IMG/VR virus record: IMGVR_UViG_3300009157_000018
Coordinates: 27,462-91,461 of that record
DNA: 64,000 nt
Strand: one strand, 5' to 3'
Origin: a virus
Part shown: piece by piece, positions 11,165 through 40,812 of the stretch
Layout: every line of letters begins with the position of its first letter
Position numbering within the stretch: position 1 is the first letter of the stretch
Notes under the pieces: model-generated
Told to the model about the DNA's origin: nothing
Databases searched by the model: none
What the model saw: only the letters and a program-made list of their open reading frames with translations
Translations under genes and position numbers: made by a program

Positions 11165-11236
11165 TTATACCCTCTTTGCGAAGAAGATGATCGCTAAGAT
11201 CACCAATATGATAATCAGAATTGTTACTACGTCCAT
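11165..11236 (-). CDS. 23-aa hydrophobic peptide
   Basis: SD GAGGTGA; MDVVTILIIILVILAIIFFAKRV; its stop abuts the next ATG. Confidence 0.55.
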   Translation of the reverse strand: MDVVTILIIILVILAIIFFAKRV

Positions 11237-11399
11237 TTTCTCACCTCTGTTGTGCCGGTAACGAGACTTCCGGCTCGGAACCTACCGCCAGAGCGATGCC
11301 GACGAGGGCCTTCCCGAGATGGCTTCTGGCTTATACCTCGGTACACATGACCCAACCGCTTACGGGGACCACGTGGTAGTCCTTGGGAGCGGGGTTAAT

Positions 11400-13980: not shown

Positions 13981-14052
13981 TGGCGGGAACGGTAGGAATC
14001 GAACCCACTGCGTTCTGCTTTGGAGGCAGTCGCCTTACCTTAAGTCGAACCC
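13981..14052 (-). tRNA. tRNA-Trp(CCA), short D arm and two U-U acceptor mismatches
   Basis: Loop CT-CCA-AA, canonical T arm, G73, CCA. Confidence 0.75.
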
Positions 14053-15600: not shown

Positions 15601-15678
15601 TGGTGGAGGCGCGGAGAATCGAACTCCGATCTTTCGGGTGCAAACCGACTGTGTAGACGCCACTAGCACTACACCCCC
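15601..15678 (-). tRNA. tRNA-Ala(TGC)
   Basis: G3-U70, A73, loop TT-TGC-AC, CCA. Confidence 0.9.
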
Positions 15679-16456: not shown

Positions 16457-16532
16457 TGGCGGCGCCCAAGAGACTCGAACTCTCTGACTTCTGGTTGACA
16501 ACCAGATACCGATACCCTTTGGCTTCGGCGCC
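16457..16532 (-). tRNA. tRNA-Asp(GTC)
   Basis: Loop TT-GTC-AA, G73, CCA. Confidence 0.88.
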
Positions 16533-17380: not shown

Positions 17381-17454
17381 TGGTAGCGACTGCGGGACTC
17401 GAACCCGCTTCTCCGACTTGAAAGGCCGGATGCTCAGCCCTATGCTCAGCCGCC
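17381..17454 (-). tRNA. tRNA-Glu(TTC)
   Basis: Loop CT-TTC-AA, weak D arm, CCA. Confidence 0.82.
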
Positions 17455-17704: not shown

Positions 17705-17777
17705 GCTGATATTGCCGTGTAGGAGATACGGCGACGACCACCCCGCTCCCTACGAAGCGACGGGCTCTGACCCCCCT

Positions 17778-17851
17778 TGGCTGGCTCGCTAGGATTCGAA
17801 CCTAGATAGTGAGGACCAAAATCTCACGTCCTGCCGTTAGACGACAAGCCA
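17778..17851 (-). tRNA. tRNA-Gln(TTG)
   Basis: U1-A72, loop TT-TTG-GT, G73, CCA. Confidence 0.9.
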
Positions 17852-18113
17852 ACGCTATTGTGGCGGTAGTACTCCCCAGGCTATGGTGGGCCAAGGACCG
17901 CCGAATAAATGCGCTTACTAGCCTTGCGTCCAAGGCCACCCCGCCTCCAGGCTTTCTACTAAAGTGCCTATTCCCTCAGCGCGTAGTCCAAGGAGCAGAG
18001 GCCCGAAGGCATGCTCCCGGTTAAAATAAGGTCAGGATGGATCACTGCAGGTCTCATCAACGCACCGGTATCTACTTGCCGGAGGCTCTCTCTTGGCCTA
18101 CTGACCTTATAAA

Positions 18114-18198
18114 TGGTGGAGGCGCCGACGAGTTGCACATCGGGTCCGAAACCGTTCTCTTGCGAGGCTTACAGCTTCGTCGAACCTATCTCACCCCC
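18114..18198 (-). ncRNA. Mini-tmRNA: tRNA-like domain only, no tag reading frame
   Basis: GGGGGTG-AGATAGGTTCGAC-GAAGCTGT...ACGGTTTC-GGAC-CCGATG-TGCAACT-CGTCGG-CGCCTCC-ACCA. G3-U70, A73, stemless D loop ending TTCGAC, P2-like stem capped by a GCAA hairpin. Confidence 0.8.
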
Positions 18199-18202
18199 AG
18201 GT

Positions 18203-18277
18203 TGGCTGGCACGGAAGGGATCGAACCTTCGAATACACGGTTAACAGCCGCGCTCTTTACCGCTCAGACACATGCCA
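18203..18277 (-). tRNA. tRNA-Asn(GTT)
   Basis: Loop CT-GTT-AA, G73, CCA. Confidence 0.9.
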
Positions 18278-18284
18278 ACGCTAA

Positions 18285-19083
18285 TGGCGAACACGATCAA
18301 TGTTTCGGTGCGGTCCATATCACGATAGTACCTCAGGTGATCGACCCTTCGCTACGTTGAACCCTATCCTAGTTCGCCTAAGCCAGCGTTTGAACAGGGG
18401 CGACCCGTCAACCTCTGGCTGTATAAATGATGCTGCTAGATTATCTGGACCTAGGAATCGACCGTCGCCTTAGAGGTCGTCTAATGTCCCTAACCTGAAA
18501 TGCATTAAGCCTAGCCTTCGGATTGAATAATCCGATCTTAGGCTTATAAGAACGGGGAACTCTAAAAAATTTCCCAGGCATAATATCCCCTAATCTGTTG
18601 GTCAGCGTCATCCTCATATCTGACCTGTCAGCCCCTCTATACTCCATTCCGAGTGCCCTAGCACTTTAGGTATAGAACCTTGTGGCCGTTGCCACGCTGC
18701 TGACTTCCCGTCGTGGATTCTCCCAAGTCTGTGTCCTTTAATTTCCAGACTATATCCAGCTCGCGGGAAGCGATAATGGATAGTTGTGAAAGCCACAACA
18801 AGAGTCACCACTATAAAATACCTTTGGGGAGTTTATGGGAAGGTGTACACCACTACTCTTGCTCTTGCAAGTCCTGCTCCCCAAAGGCAGTTAAATTGGC
18901 TTCGCGGGTTTCTAGTAAGACCCCAAGCCAGTTACCTTCTGCCACAACTAGAACACGGCGGTAACGAATAAATGAGGTAAGGCTTGCCTGGATACGCTAC
19001 CCATGACCAAGGCGTCCGTCCAGGGCGATGGAATCCAAGCCATCGCCGTGCGTGGGGAGGAGGTACCCCACACCGTATTCGCC
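18285..19083 (-). ncRNA. Large (~799 nt) multi-hairpin ncRNA, GOLLD-like candidate
   Basis: 12-bp closing helix GGCGAATACGGT/ATCGTGTTCGCC ending in CCA; more than 12 internal helices and a pseudoknot; no credible ORF; inside a phage tRNA cluster. Confidence 0.65.
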
Positions 19084-19171
19084 AATTGTTAAAGTTGCTG
19101 TGACCCCGGCCGGGTTCTCCCTTGGTTCGCTACCAGAGCCACAGCAAATAATTGGTACGTCCTACAGGAAA

Positions 19172-19248
19172 TGGTAGGGACCCCGAGAGTCGAACTCGGC
19201 TAAACTACCTTATCAGAGTAGCGCTCACGACCGGCCTGCCCGATCCCT
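19172..19248 (-). tRNA. tRNA-Ile(GAT)
   Basis: Loop CT-GAT-AA, A73, CCA. Confidence 0.85.
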
Positions 19249-19249
19249 A

Positions 19250-19327
19250 TGGTAGCCTCTCATGGAATCGAACCATGCTCTGAGCCGCTTATAAGACGGA
19301 TTCCCTCTACCAGAGAGAACAGAGGCC
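19250..19327 (-). tRNA. tRNA-Ile(TAT)
   Basis: Loop CT-TAT-AA, A73, CCA. Confidence 0.82.
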
Positions 19328-19335
19328 ATTCTGAT

Positions 19336-19567: not shown

Positions 19568-19678
19568 AAGATGTGTACGGTCTTAAGGCAAGGAGACCAT
19601 CACAGGAGGTTTACCGCTCTGGCATTGCTGCCCTCTCGGTCTAACTCAGCACAGCTAGTACACAGACCCGTACTTAAT

Positions 19679-19873: not shown

Positions 19874-19902
19874 ACTGTAACACAGCTCTTTGGGCTTGTC
19901 AA
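19874..19902 (-). promoter_or_regulatory. Promoter at the head of the tRNA island
   Basis: CACTTGACA-17-TACAGT; the same motif recurs at 54964-54992 and 62310-62338. Confidence 0.7.
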
Positions 19903-19957: not shown

Positions 19958-21193
19958 CTAGACATGCTTAGTGATGTACCAAGTGAAGTTCTGCGAGTTG
20001 GTGAAGGTATATTGCTTCCCAACCTGAGCATCCACTGCTACATCTTTCACATCTCCTGTAATCGTCACACCAGACAACACATCGGTTCGAAGAACCTGGT
20101 GGGTGTCGGGATGCTTGAATTCCAACTTGATGGCAATGTCATTTCGGAATGCATCGACGGGGAAATCAGTATCAGTTGTAGCGGTGCTACCACCAATCAT
20201 GATCTTCTCTAGATCGAAGTCTTCCGCGAAGACAGTGAAGTTACCCGTTACATCGGCTGGAGTCTGACGCCATGATCCAACCTTTTGGCTACCCATTCCT
20301 TCTTCGCTCTGGGCGTTGAAGTTCATGGTTGCGTCAACGCTCTGCATACCTCTCACTTGCATGCCATTAGGGGCGTTTGCAGTGATGGTAACAGGGATAT
20401 GATAGTAACCACGAATAGCTGCAGGACTTACGGTGTCCTTGGCTTGGAACGGATCAGGAGTCGTGCCACCAGTACGCTGGTAAGACCACGCGAACTGAGT
20501 GCCGTTAGCGATCTGGGCAAGGATCGTCGCGTTGGTAATCGAAACAACCGTACCGCTACATACAAAGTCGTCATTTTCCAGAAGATAAGTGGTAGAACCT
20601 GATGGCTGAGCCATCTGGGCGCTAATCAAGAAGTTTCCAGAAGCCTGCCCACGCGTTAGCGCAATAGCAGTATTCGACAATGTATAGACGGCCTGGCTAG
20701 CACCTGATGCTGTCTGATTATCAACTTGAACAAATCGCTCAAATGCGGTCTTGTTGTCCGCAGTCAGATCGAAGGTCTCCGTTGCCGATGCATTGGTAGC
20801 CGCTTGAATACGGTAACTACCGACTGTTGCCTGCCGAACGTAAACGCTCTGCAACCATGCAGTACGAGCAGTGTTTCTCTGCATCATTAGAACGTCAACA
20901 TCAGCGTTGCCAAGCATATCCTGAACAGTCTTATTTGACCAGGTATGCGAAGGATCGAAGTTCGCAAACATCGAAATCAATCGAGCATTGACTAAGTTGG
21001 CGTCAATAGGTAGCGTGACATCAGGAGAATCGAAGCTGATACCTACAACGGTTTCGTTTCCGATTTCCTTTTCCACGGTATTTGGCCGCTGAGCATTCGT
21101 GTTAGCAGACTGTACACGGCGAGCCTGTGAACTAGCTGCTGGAGTGACAATAAACGGCGCTAAGTTTGCTGGGTCTTGTGATAGACGGCCCAT
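19958..21193 (-). CDS. Major tail (tube) protein
   Basis: 411 aa, Thr/Ala/Val-rich and beta-type; follows the putative tail terminator. Confidence 0.75.
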   Translation of the reverse strand: MGRLSQDPANLAPFIVTPAASSQARRVQSANTNAQRPNTVEKEIGNETVVGISFDSPDVTLPIDANLVNARLISMFANFDPSHTWSNKTVQDMLGNADVDVLMMQRNTARTAWLQSVYVRQATVGSYRIQAATNASATETFDLTADNKTAFERFVQVDNQTASGASQAVYTLSNTAIALTRGQASGNFLISAQMAQPSGSTTYLLENDDFVCSGTVVSITNATILAQIANGTQFAWSYQRTGGTTPDPFQAKDTVSPAAIRGYYHIPVTITANAPNGMQVRGMQSVDATMNFNAQSEEGMGSQKVGSWRQTPADVTGNFTVFAEDFDLEKIMIGGSTATTDTDFPVDAFRNDIAIKLEFKHPDTHQVLRTDVLSGVTITGDVKDVAVDAQVGKQYTFTNSQNFTWYITKHV

Positions 21194-25086: not shown

Positions 25087-28000
25087 CTATCTTCTTCTTC
25101 GTCCAGTTATTGCCGTCCGAAGTCGATTGCCAGTTTGACTTCCACGCAACCTAGCTATTCCATCGCCCACGACCCGAGAGCGACTTACCGAAGTTTCCAA
25201 GATTGATCCCAGCGTAGTGATGTTCTCACCAGATCGGAATACCAATCTGAGCACCGTATCCGTAATAGAAAACGATTCAAGGGTTTCTCTAAACAGAGAA
25301 ACCTGGCGCTCTGCACTTTCCACAAACGCAAGGGTCTCGGTCGCAAATCTCTGGATCGCAAGAGGGAAGCCCTCAACGAATTCACTGAACGAGATAGCGT
25401 CTACGGCATCTCGGGCAAAGCCCGCGAATCGCACTATTGAATCTGTTAGGCCGAGCGCATCCGTAGTTGAGCGTACCAAAGTAGAAACACGTTCGGCAGT
25501 GTCAGCCAGGCTGAGTGAATCCGAAATGGCTCTAAGCAGAGTCACTGATCGAGAAACAGTATCGCTAAGCCCCAGGGCATCTGATACAGATCGGAGAATA
25601 ACCCGGAAACCATCGACCGATTCTGAGAAGGAGATAGAATCGACCGTCGTTCTCATAGCGGTCAATGCTCTGGCAACGATATCTACAAGAGACACCGTAT
25701 CAGTCGTAGTTCTGACCAGACTCACAAGCCGAGTTACCGAATCAGCCAAGGCCAAAGCATCGGTCGCGAATCTCTGAACAACAGCGAGTGCTGCTTCGAC
25801 TACTTCAGAGAAGGAGATAGCATCAGATACATCCCTAAAGAATGATCCCACTCTGGTTGCTGCATCAGCGAATGAAAGACTGTCAATCGTTGAGCGTACC
25901 GAAGTCAGAACTCTGACAGACATATCAGCCAAAGTCAGCGAATCTGTGGTTATTCGGAACAGTGAGGCTATTCTGGTCGAAACATCAGCCAAGCCAAGAG
26001 CGTCGGCTACTGTTCTCACAGCCGTCTTAATCTGTGTTGCTACATCGGCCAGTGACAGTGTGTCGATTGTAGATCGAACAAAGTTGCTTACTCTGGTCGC
26101 AGTATCGGTCAGGTTGAGAGCATCAACGGTAGACCGCAAAATAACCCGGAGACCTATCGCAACATCCGCAAATGTAATCGAGTCAGCTACAGTACGGAAT
26201 AGGCTAACAGTTCGCGTAACTACATCTGCAAGTCCAAGCGCGTCCGAAGCACTCCGCAGGAAGGTACCCGTTCGCGTGACCACATCGGCCAAAGTCAGCG
26301 CGTCAGTAATGCTGCGGATAAATGTGCCTGTTCGGGTTGCTGTATCCGAGAAGGTTATGGAGTCAATCGCCGCTCGAACTTTAGCCTCGATATCCGAGAC
26401 AACTTCCGAGAAGGTAAGTTGATCGGAAATATCACGAAGGAAGGTACCCGTCCTGGTAGCAGCGTCAATTGAGCTCAGTGCATCAGCAGCAGATCGCAAG
26501 ATAGCTCGAATAGCCTCTGCCGTATCTGCCAGTGAGAGTGAATCAGTGGTCGTTCGAATTGCTGTAAGAACTCGCACTGCTGCATCGGAAAGCGTAAGAC
26601 TGTCCGCAACACTTCTTATAAAGGTGCCAACTCTGGTTGCTGCATCAGTGAGCGTAAGGGAAGCTACTGTCGTCCGTACAACACTTTTGATTCGATTGGC
26701 AACATCTGCCAGCGTCAGGCTGTCAGACACAGCTCTCAGGAAAGTACCTGTTCGAGTAACAACATCCGAGAATGACAATGCGTCGGTGGTTGTTCGAACT
26801 GCTGCCTTGATCCTGGTAACTGCGTCCGCTAAAGTCAGCGAATCTGTGGTTGCCCTGATAAATGTTCCTACTCTAGCCGCAGCGTCAGAAAGAAACAAGG
26901 CATCAACCGTTGATCTGATAAGAATCCGAGTTCCAGTTGCAACATCGGCCAGATTCAAGGAATCTGAAACAGCCCGAATAAAGGTGCCGGTTCTAGTAAC
27001 AGCATCGGCTAGTGCAATGGCATCAATCGCGGTTCTCACCGCACTCCTGATCCGAGTTGCTACATCCGTCAGAGTTAGTCCATCGGCTATTGATCGAAGG
27101 AATGTCCCAGTTCGCGTAACAGTATCATTAAGTGATAATGCGTCAGTGACAGAGCGAACTGCGCCTTTCGAGCGAGTGGCCACATCGGCTAGGGTAAGTC
27201 CCTGTGTAATACTTCGTAAGAATGTACCGGTGCGGCTGGCCACATCGCTCAGAGTCAGAGCATCAGTGACTATTCGGGCTAAAATCTTTGTACTCGTCGC
27301 AGCGTCGCCCAAGGTCAACCCTTGTGCGATTGCCCGGATAAAGGTGCCAACACGCGCTGCGACTTCAGCCAGATTAAGCGTATCAGTAATACTACGAACA
27401 AACCCGCCGGAACGGGATGCCCCAGCAGATGGACCTGTGAAGCCTGTGTTGTAATGTTCTAGTATCTGGGTCGGGGTCAGGACGGTATCGTAGATCGCTA
27501 TTTCATCGAGAGAGCCGGGGAACCACGAGGTTCCACCGGTCCCCGTGTTGCCGATAGCGAGTTGGGCACCCGCAGCGTCGGCAAGCGTCTGGTCCCCGAT
27601 GTAGGCTGTGACGTCGGTACCGTCTTTGTAGATCAGCGTATTGCCGCTGCCAGTTCCGTTGTAAGTGGCAACAAAGTGGTGCCAGTTTCCGGTATCGGTG
27701 GTCGTGCCCGATTCGGTGGCGATCTGGGCCACGCCCGCCTTGGCGAAGAAGAACTTGTCGCCAGTCCCGAAGCCGACCGCGTAGGCGTTGGTGCCCCGGT
27801 AAAGGATAAACCGGAGGGCGGCGGTGTCTGCAGAGAGGTTGGCCCAGCACTCAACGCTCAACGGCCCGTTGCCGAAGTCCATCGAAGCGTGGCCGGTAAT
27901 TCGGAACTGCTCCGTCGATCCGTCGAATGCGATGGCCGTGTCCGCGTCGCCCGCTAAAGCTCCAGTCTGACTATAGGTGGGCGTCCCATCCGTGAACGCC

Positions 28001-39300: not shown

Positions 39301-40812
39301 CTACCCAATAGTGAATTCCTCCAATGCCGCATACGATATGGGCATCTTTTCTTTTAGTATACCAGAAATGGCCTCCGCGTACACGCGAATCTCGTATTGA
39401 GCGTCTGGAGTATTTCGTAATTCCAGAAAGTGCATCCAGTTACGGAAGTTGCCCGTCACAATGAATTCAGTATACAACGAGAGCGGGAGGACCATTCTGG
39501 CCATTTCGCGCGCTACACCGTAGGCCAATAGTTTTTCATAGACTTCGAACGAATGATTATAGGCAGCATCGAGCGCCCACTGAGTGCCTTGGTGTAAATA
39601 AGCCATATCATTTGACGGAGCCATGGAGGATTGCTTGTTATTTGGGTCTTGCACTCTGGCTTGGTCGGGAATGTAGAATTCGGGCTCGAATTCCTTGTAT
39701 CGTCCGCTACGCTCGTTATAACTGTTGTGAACAATCAATCCGTTGGCAATAAAGTTGTGATGAGGAGCGGACATCTCGATATCAAATGTCTCTTCCTCTC
39801 CTACTAGATAGGGGGTCTGAACCATCTTCGAGAACATGGACCCGCCTTGGTTGCGCCTGATCGCCAACTTCTGCTCGCCATTGGACTTATGATGATGGCA
39901 ATCGCTACAGACTGGCTTTAGATTATCTCGCACAAGCGCCTTGGTAATATCCGATGCTACTGGGATTACATGGTCTAGGCCGAGAAGGGCATAGGGAAGT
40001 TCAGCGCCACATAGATAGCACCTGTCGATCTCTTGGACCAGAAAAGGCTTCTGTTGATTGGTCCATACCTGTATGCCTGATCTCAGTGATGGTGGAATCT
40101 TATCCCTACTGGTGAGAGTATTCCTAACACCGTGCCTGGCAATGTAATCACCAGTTCGCAACGACCCTGCCTTGGCCCACCCTTCCGGGGTAAGGAAGAC
40201 ATGATCTACCGAAGCCTTCACCCCATGGCCGCTTTCGGTTTCGACAAAAACCAACTCCTTTGTCCCAGATTTCCAAACCTGAGCCATCTTACTGGATTCA
40301 AGAAGTTGAGTACTTTCATTTAGCACTCGGGTCGAAAGGTTTCGGCAAGATGGTAACAGGCGGGTTCGCCCCATAGAGTCGGGTACACCTTCATGCCAAT
40401 TGCGCCAAATCTCTCTGATTGATCTCTTGTGGTTATTCTGGCCAGTTCCCAAGGAAATAAGAGTGTCGCCCGAAAGACAGAAGGTTCGGTGCCGCTGCCA
40501 CTCTCTCGCAACAAAGATCGGACATTTAACATAAAACTGGAACACGACATGTTCGAACGGACTCATATGCTTGTTCATTGCCAGGAATCGGATAAGTCGC
40601 TCGTCAGCGGCTCCTCGCCAGGCGGGAAGAGCTGCACCATTACTAATACGAGCTGCCCGGACTACGGATAGGTCCGACCCCATGGAATCGACTAATTCGA
40701 GTCTCCCCTTGTCTAAGACGCCAGTGCGCGCTTCGTATTCCGGGGTTCCCGGAACTTGCTCTAAGAGTAACCGTTCCAGAGTTGCCGGATCATGGTCTGT
40801 GGGATTGGCCAT
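39301..40812 (-). CDS. thyX: Flavin-dependent thymidylate synthase ThyX, intein-containing
   Basis: H.SPFEH, RHRTF|SYNERSGRY, AREMARMVLP, AQYEIR. Confidence 0.92.
   Translation of the reverse strand: MANPTDHDPATLERLLLEQVPGTPEYEARTGVLDKGRLELVDSMGSDLSVVRAARISNGAALPAWRGAADERLIRFLAMNKHMSPFEHVVFQFYVKCPIFVAREWQRHRTFCLSGDTLISLGTGQNNHKRSIREIWRNWHEGVPDSMGRTRLLPSCRNLSTRVLNESTQLLESSKMAQVWKSGTKELVFVETESGHGVKASVDHVFLTPEGWAKAGSLRTGDYIARHGVRNTLTSRDKIPPSLRSGIQVWTNQQKPFLVQEIDRCYLCGAELPYALLGLDHVIPVASDITKALVRDNLKPVCSDCHHHKSNGEQKLAIRRNQGGSMFSKMVQTPYLVGEEETFDIEMSAPHHNFIANGLIVHNSYNERSGRYKEFEPEFYIPDQARVQDPNNKQSSMAPSNDMAYLHQGTQWALDAAYNHSFEVYEKLLAYGVAREMARMVLPLSLYTEFIVTGNFRNWMHFLELRNTPDAQYEIRVYAEAISGILKEKMPISYAALEEFTIG
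39724..40479 (-). mobile_element. 252-aa intein with an HNH homing endonuclease
   Basis: Begins CLSGDT, block B ASVDHVF, HNH CYLC...DHVIP...NLKPVCSDCH, ends FIANGLIVHN before Ser. Confidence 0.92.

Follow-up and report, generated by a model that had tools for sequence, protein, structure and literature searches.

Bacteriophage T4 provides, by analogy, the closest precedent for the locus described here. Two small stable RNAs of this phage, RNAC and RNAD (species 1 and 2), arise from the same precursors as its tRNAs. They are encoded in the T4 tRNA region, and their function is yet unknown (PMC9697503). Two much larger RNAs, GOLLD and ROOL, often adjoin the tRNA islands of phages and prophages; GOLLD has a variable 5' part, and tRNAs are sometimes found within its linker (bioRxiv 10.1101/2024.12.08.627333).

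We have analyzed an 894-nt gap between two tRNA genes of an uncultured soil phage. We consider it probable that this gap consists of a series of small structured RNAs, about six separate cassettes designated H, D, C, B, A2 and A, and not of one giant RNA. As in the case of RNAC and RNAD, these would be small structured RNAs inside a tRNA cluster, on the tRNA strand and without an ORF of their own. Unlike the situation in T4, six cassettes are found in a single gap from tRNA to tRNA, and they are shuffled among close relatives. They appear to be RNAs of the same kind as RNAC and RNAD, not of the same family: A blastn search of 50,697 GenBank phage records, using as queries the spacer, module D and the gap of a distant relative (L004) which contains a similar element, gave no match, T4 included. 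A cassette mosaic of this type is a fairly ordinary trait of phage tRNA islands.

The phage is represented in IMG/VR by a 91 kb contig (IMGVR_UViG_3300009157_000018), which carries genes for a major head protein, the large terminase subunit, ribonucleotide reductase and thymidylate synthase. The window, to which all coordinates refer, is the whole stretch of 64,000 nucleotides of this contig that was analyzed (positions 27,462 to 91,461 of the record). ARAGORN detects 29 tRNA genes between 7.4 and 19.8 kb, every one of them on the minus strand. Two further tRNAs missed by ARAGORN (17384-17454 and 16460-16532, minus strand, about 43 bits each) are found by Rfam at the gathering score, which gives an array of 30-plus tRNAs. 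A probable additional tRNA without an ARAGORN call lies at 13984-14052 (minus strand): It scores 28.2 bits, compared with an Rfam threshold of 29, has a CCA (Trp) anticodon by eye and is kept in another distant relative, L009 (79% identity over 84 nt). The tRNA-Ala(UGC) gene at 15601-15678 (minus strand) is also matched by the tmRNA model, with 28.8 bits, owing to the alanine tRNA-like domain; this probably reflects only a shared acceptor identity. Outside the array, the thymidylate synthase ORF (39301-40812, minus strand) has an HNH endonuclease domain in its middle, and islands with 61-64% GC are found at 41-45 kb, 50-51 kb and 55-56 kb in a genome of about 50% GC. Both the HNH insert and the GC-rich islands may be mobile insertions (inteins, introns or homing genes).

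The spacer studied here occupies positions 18278-19171 of the minus strand. Its upstream boundary is tRNA-Ile(GAU), at 19172-19248 (minus strand, detected by ARAGORN), where 82 nt are identical in a close relative, X8. Its downstream boundary is tRNA-Asn(GUU), at 18203-18277 (minus strand, detected by ARAGORN and Rfam). The 8-nt linker at 18278-18285 remains with tRNA-Asn in the joints found in relatives. A sigma-70-like promoter sequence, with TTGACA, a 17-nt spacer, TG and TACAGT (10 of 12 matches in a consensus scan), precedes the first tRNA of the array on the minus strand, running from 19902 to 19874; it is a putative promoter. No terminator-like site has been found between this sequence and position 18200, a stretch which includes the spacer. 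A transcript that carries both the tRNAs and the spacer would probably begin at this promoter-like site.

The spacer does not appear to code for proteins. The preliminary description of this DNA had noted only short ORFs without a recognizable product, and this holds in all the genetic codes and databases that we have tried. With translation table 11 there is no ORF above about 85 amino acids, and no frame spanning the spacer is opened by reassignment of TGA, TAG or TAA. The nine short ORFs have no match in Pfam or PHROG, and no small-protein homologues of the spacer ORFs are found in metagenome protein sets. An ORF of 65 amino acids on the minus strand has no homologue among 5.8 billion proteins. 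The longest one, with 83 amino acids on the plus strand, has only two matches, formed by multiple short stretches of proteins of 411 and 492 amino acids. Finally, module B shows about ten single-base indels among near-identical relatives, which excludes a reading frame there. The existence of several ORFs of 44 to 83 amino acids would agree with a coding function of the spacer, for one small protein or several and perhaps with an alternative genetic code. Against it stand the closed frames, the lack of Pfam, PHROG and protein homologues, the patchy matches of the 83 amino acid ORF and the indels in module B, and we regard it as the least probable of all the explanations considered here.

The spacer does not belong to any catalogued RNA family. 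It had been described as a GOLLD-like member or a new family, and a comparison with the Rfam models of GOLLD, ROOL, RNase P and group I and II introns had been proposed. We have searched all 4227 models of Rfam 15 with cmscan. No family is found in the spacer at the gathering score, nor at E<=10 with permissive filters (positions 17840-19180), nor at E<=1 in a scan of the whole tRNA array. The best match within the spacer, OmrA-B with E=0.26, is at chance level. The covariance models of GOLLD (RF01998, which represents its conserved 3' domain) and ROOL (RF03087) do not match in any of these three scans. Nor is there a match above chance level inside 18278-19171 to the models for group I and II introns, RNase P RNA, tmRNA and tRNA, and ARAGORN finds neither a tRNA nor a tmRNA there. 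Within the reach of these models, the spacer is therefore none of GOLLD, ROOL, a group I or II intron, RNase P RNA or tmRNA. The spacer is like GOLLD in being encoded by a phage, beside tRNAs, with about 800 nt of ORF-free and hairpin-rich sequence. It differs from GOLLD in the lack of a match to the model at E<=10, in the lack of a conserved 3' core and in having pieces which are placed independently in relatives. It shares with ROOL the proximity to a phage tRNA island; in contrast to ROOL, it neither matches the model nor gives evidence of a single fold of about 600 nt. No RNA sequencing run containing this stretch was listed among the runs found.

On the other hand, the spacer is clearly rich in hairpins, as the preliminary description had stated when it presented this part of the tRNA cluster as non-coding sequence of RNA type. 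Nine perfect local stems of at least 7 bp are found, compared with 2.1 +/- 1.4 in 200 dinucleotide shuffles, none of which reaches nine; windows of 894 nt from coding regions of the same phage have a mean of 3.0 and a maximum of 6. For stems of at least 6 bp the figures are 25 in the spacer and 8.9 +/- 2.9 in shuffles. Short perfect hairpins are thus enriched 3-4 times over both shuffles and the coding DNA of the phage itself. All twelve pairs of complementary segments previously listed as internal helices are found in their places. Folding energy is less informative. For the whole region z is about -5, whichever strand is folded. Six coding windows of the same phage and of the same length, used as controls, have values from -0.7 to -4.25. 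Folding energy alone is therefore weak evidence, and the spacer is only modestly beyond the controls. The values for individual modules are also modest, from -1.1 to -2.9.

The main question is whether these hairpins belong to one RNA. The region had been proposed to be a single RNA of about 800 nt, closed by its ends. A new class of ornate RNA with 800-890 nt would be closed by this end helix and by other helices between A and D/C, with C, A2 and H as variable elements of its periphery. The end helix is present: Positions 19072-19084 may pair with 18285-18297 over 13 bp, which include two G-U pairs. However, it is within chance expectation: Shuffles have a longest long-range stem of 12.0 +/- 1.3 bp on average, and one of at least 13 bp occurs in 18 of 60. 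A full-length partition function predicts that pairing takes place mostly inside modules, with summed pair probabilities of 61 for B, 49 for A2, 35 for C, 27 for D, 24 for A and 21 for H, and with negligible pairing between D and B. It also predicts about 40 bp of pairing from A to D/C in this phage at p>0.5, namely the 13-bp end helix and about 28 further pairs, which would favor the giant RNA. The same may be said of the D-A duplex energy (z -2.9 compared with shuffles, uncorrected for 15 comparisons), of the z of about -5 for the whole region, of the neighboring tRNAs, which are often found next to GOLLD and ROOL (bioRxiv 10.1101/2024.12.08.627333), of the lack of an internal terminator and of the variable 5' region which GOLLD likewise has.

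The close relatives of the phage give a different picture. We have compared positions 17852-19330 with Logan contigs from four metagenome runs of soil or sediment. Three of them, from different studies (X2, X7 and X8), contain close relatives, which are 91-99% identical where they can be aligned. Our comparative set consists of these three near-identical relatives, rebuilt from difference tables, and one distant homologue of module D. The contiguous order in the relatives is tRNA-Ile, D, B, tRNA-Asn. Their joints skip 19088-19168 (H), 18820-18972 (C) and 18286-18598 (A and A2); the H skip is seen in X8 only, as its contig is the sole one that reaches tRNA-Ile. The runs lack cover at 18452-18551 and 19102-19151, which is not evidence of absence. 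Breakpoints coincide with short AU-rich linkers at module boundaries, and a linker of the AUUUAU type is found at the D/C, C/B and A2/A boundaries. The presence of modules C, A2 and H varies independently. Module A is found in all three relatives, on separate contigs and between two other tRNAs. A and D are thus in different transcription units, separated by tRNAs, and the end helix is therefore unable to form in cis in these phages.

These results argue against a single RNA. Besides the frequency of similar stems in shuffles and the separation of A from D, the substitutions found in relatives at 18331, 18351 and 18354 would break long-range pairs between A and D/C. The negligible pairing of D with B, the lack of an Rfam match and the absence of the element from two distant relatives, L008 and L009, point in the same direction. 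A contiguous RNA of about 800 nt with domains that occur together, as in GOLLD, is not what the relatives contain: They have A away from D and B, and they lack C, A2 and H. A pseudoknot had also been proposed. Its segments are present, but it joins module B to module C, which is absent from close relatives. We find it quite improbable that the spacer is one giant RNA; the relatives split the region which the preliminary description had taken as a unit.

The separate cassettes, which remain the preferred explanation, have 78 to 221 nt each. All are on the strand of the tRNAs, and none has its own promoter or terminator. The first one in the direction of transcription is module H (19094-19171, minus strand), which contains a relic of a tRNA 3' end and a 16-bp hairpin (19095-19147). 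The relic, with 16 nt at 19150-19165, is identical in 15 positions to the 3' end of tRNA-Glu(CUC); its score is 27, while the null maximum is 26. X8 skips this module, with a joint from 19087 to 19169. We have also considered the modules as decayed tRNAs and have rejected this idea: Only the relic in H is marginally above the null, and the tRNA model finds nothing.

Module D (18973-19093, minus strand) has three hairpins, a GGCAA tail and an AUUUAUU linker. The hairpins are formed by GUGUGGGG/CCCCACGC, with UACCUCCU as its loop, by GGCGAUGG/CCAUCGCC and by CUGGA/UCCAG. The module is 98-99% identical in X2, X7 and X8. An ACCUCCU sequence, which resembles an anti-Shine-Dalgarno, appears twice in spacers of the array (19058-19065 and 19604-19610, minus strand), and the loop of module D which contains it is unchanged in close relatives; CCUCC is about twice as frequent in the array as expected from composition (20 compared with 9.4). 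A role of this loop as a regulator was rejected: Hairpin 1 is not conserved in L004, and a search for an extended target in the window found none. Module C (18820-18972, minus strand) is a variable insert with a perfect 11-bp hairpin (18821-18831 with 18877-18887) and smaller stems. It is skipped in X2, X7 and X8, where 18819 is joined to 18973 or 18980, and a C-like piece of 24 nt is found at a different position of the array in X8.

Module B (18599-18819, minus strand) is a multi-hairpin RNA of 221 nt, which comes directly after D in X2, X7 and X8. Its 3'-terminal hairpin (18599-18635, minus strand), ending in CUGACCA, is identical in 33 of 41 positions to the 3' half of tRNA-His of L004 (L004:16113-16152), with z 3.3; this likeness is probably due to chance, although the hairpin may be a tRNA-derived piece. 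Module A2 (18425-18598, minus strand) has been seen in this phage alone. Nested hairpins, TAAGCCTA/TAGGCTTA and TCGGATT/AATCCGA, are accompanied by further stems, and the module has perfect stems of 8 and 7 bp. None of the four runs covers its core, at 18452-18551, and X2 and X8 join 18285/18286 to 18599.

Module A (18283-18424, minus strand) has 142 nt, with one hairpin and a domain that GGCGAAC/GUUCGCC closes locally. The strand proposed to pair with the far end of the region is the 3' strand of this module, and it has a local partner of its own. In the relatives, a tRNA 3' end (T-arm, acceptor and CCA) followed by AUA is found upstream of module A; downstream, UAACAU precedes a tRNA that differs from tRNA-Lys(UUU) of this phage at one of its first 24 nt. 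In the window, tRNA-Lys(UUU) is 7 kb away from module A. A paralogous origin of module D and the inner domain of A was also considered and rejected: Their local alignment is no better than those of shuffles, and only GGCGAA and CGTGTTC are common to both.

The substitutions found in the relatives indicate which strand is folded. We have mapped them on the predicted structures of both strands. Every substitution at a paired site of D and B keeps the pair on the minus strand, as changes from C-G to U-G or from G-U to A-U. Only the change at 18669 also keeps its pair on the plus strand, where those at 19054 and 18670 break theirs. Module D has only two changes, 19051 and 19054, both in hairpin 1: On the minus strand they correspond to G-U to A-U and C-G to U-G, and on the plus strand the one at 19054 gives an A-C mismatch. 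In module B, the substitutions at 18710 and 18669/18670 give G-U pairs on the minus strand only, and the fold of the hairpin at 18637-18675 is kept through a double change from C-G to U-A and matched insertions on both sides of its inner stem. Module A has eight variable sites: Five of them are in a single hairpin loop of 13 nt, and two others break weakly predicted pairs. Few as they are, these substitutions all indicate an RNA fold on the tRNA strand and within single modules, as judged from predicted structures. They also bear on the proposal that the spacer acts as DNA, serving as an origin, as a packaging site or as a recombination hotspot made of inverted repeats. In favor of such an element, the folding energy of these repeats is equally good for either strand, but the substitutions preserve pairing only when G-U pairs are counted and only on the tRNA strand, and the spacer sits inside a tRNA operon with a single direction. 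We consider a DNA element very improbable.

We have also searched for more distant relatives. For the tail-type protein whose gene (19958-21193) immediately precedes the array, 84 homologues are found in metagenomes, the close ones with 64-94% identity; the alignment search with this protein gives only relatives with 51-59% identity. Three of those distant relatives, L004, L008 and L009, have the same kind of tRNA array. Searches with single proteins (tail protein, an ORF of 212 amino acids, terminase and capsid) gave nothing else, or a single capsid contig of 6.8 kb. The gap between tRNA-Ile(GAU) and tRNA-Asn is 82 nt in L004, 129 nt in L008 and 90 nt in L009. No part of the spacer is detected by blastn in these three phages, whose own long spacers are unrelated to one another. 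Three ORF-free elements of other spacers (11166-11249, 17710-17775 and 19569-19606) are conserved in L009 with 76-97% identity. Other spacer units of the array, at least in part, therefore predate the modules of the spacer studied here. An element of about 86 nt (18114-18199, minus strand), in the interval between tRNA-Asn and tRNA-Gln(UUG), is present in X2, X7 and X8; it is also found in L009, with 75% identity over 87 nt, between its tRNA-Gln and tRNA-Lys. Near this element, cmscan shows only a chance-level match to tmRNA_permuted (E=8).

A probable distant homologue has been found for module D only. R1, a covariance model of D by itself, gives a single match outside the window, at L004:13211-13341, with 22.4 bits and an E of about 2e-4 to 5e-4 by rough calibration. 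The match has full length and is found on the tRNA strand, in the gap just before tRNA-Ile(GAU). It keeps hairpin 2 (GGCGRUGG/CCAUCGCY, with a different loop), the CUGGA/UCCAG base of hairpin 3 (with an interior of 26 nt, compared with 48 nt), the GGCAA tail and ACCU with the AUUUAUU linker after it. In place of hairpin 1, with its anti-Shine-Dalgarno-like loop, L004 has an unrelated and shorter hairpin. Standard pairs fill 96% of the pair cells of D and L004, compared with 35-46% in slid controls, although the alignment has been fitted to the model. The local alignment of D with the 567-nt gap of L004 has a score of 32, compared with 17.9 +/- 2.4 in shuffles, and none of 500 shuffles is as high. 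With the whole L004 array, excluding the linker, the local alignment is not significant. From the sequence and the model, the L004 element is a probable homologue of module D. This homologue is found in a phage whose tail protein is only about 54% identical, which argues that the function of at least one cassette is maintained.

Other searches did not extend these results. A second-round model of D (R2) found nothing more in the loci searched. A model of B (R3) gave no homologue in L004, L008 or L009, even with the filters off, and an Rfam scan of the region of the L004 homologue showed nothing relevant. Exact patterns for the core of D are absent from viral contigs, with 62 chance matches in bacterial genomes with a high GC; the core of B gives one chance match (L011) and the core of A none.

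The spacer might also be mostly non-functional, a hairpin-rich debris left by duplication, deletion and recombination in the tRNA array and carried as harmless. The presence or absence of modules varies among near-identical relatives, five of the six have no counterpart in more distant relatives and H contains a tRNA relic. The z of -4.25 reached by coding controls also fits this proposal, and rapid turnover suits neutral spacer DNA as well as it suits an accessory function. On the other hand, local stems are 3-4 times more abundant than in shuffles and coding DNA, the substitutions keep pairs in a strand-specific way, with a compensatory change in one hairpin, and D is conserved in L004. We consider neutral spacer DNA unlikely as an explanation of the whole spacer.

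The chain of small cassettes suggests the following mechanism. A promoter-like site near 19,900 would probably drive the transcription of the cassettes as part of the tRNA operon. Excision of tRNAs by RNase P and 3' tRNA-processing nucleases, known as tRNA punctuation, is established tRNA biology. When these enzymes cut the flanking tRNAs, the spacer would be freed. By analogy of mechanism only, this would be similar to the processing punctuated by tRNAs in mitochondrial polycistrons or in the release of mascRNA from MALAT1: The flanking tRNAs would set the RNA ends through RNase P and RNase Z. Linkers of the AUUUAU type at the boundaries may then allow enzymes of the RNase E type to cut the spacer further into stable small RNAs. 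Without such internal cleavage at AU-rich linkers, this phage could release all 894 nt as one molecule. The rearrangements seen in the relatives indicate that cassettes have been gained, lost and moved between tRNA junctions, and recombination at tRNA ends and linkers would be the probable route.

The cassettes turn over quickly among near-identical phages, which suggests that they are accessory, take part in an arms race or are neutral. A function as accessory RNAs, either trans-acting or decoys, for host takeover or counter-defence is a reasonable possibility, although somewhat short of probable. Processing or insulator modules for the tRNA precursor are more doubtful, to the same extent as cassettes which are largely neutral, and there is a small chance of something else. 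More speculatively, D and perhaps A and B might found undescribed families of small phage RNAs, mobile between tRNA junctions and acting in trans, or the cassettes of this phage might be fused into one RNA of about 0.9 kb by the pairing of about 40 bp between A and D/C; we would not expect this bolder reading to hold.

In summary, these results remove a false candidate for a new class of giant RNA. They also provide a lesson: Long-range helices and strong folding energy in a single sequence are insufficient to call a giant RNA. The tRNA island of this phage would be one more patchwork of exchangeable small structured RNAs which are absent from Rfam. Their study could best begin with module D, which two diverged phages probably share beside tRNA-Ile(GAU). 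If the cassettes are functional, the tRNA arrays of phages would contain a large store of small RNAs that has been poorly catalogued.
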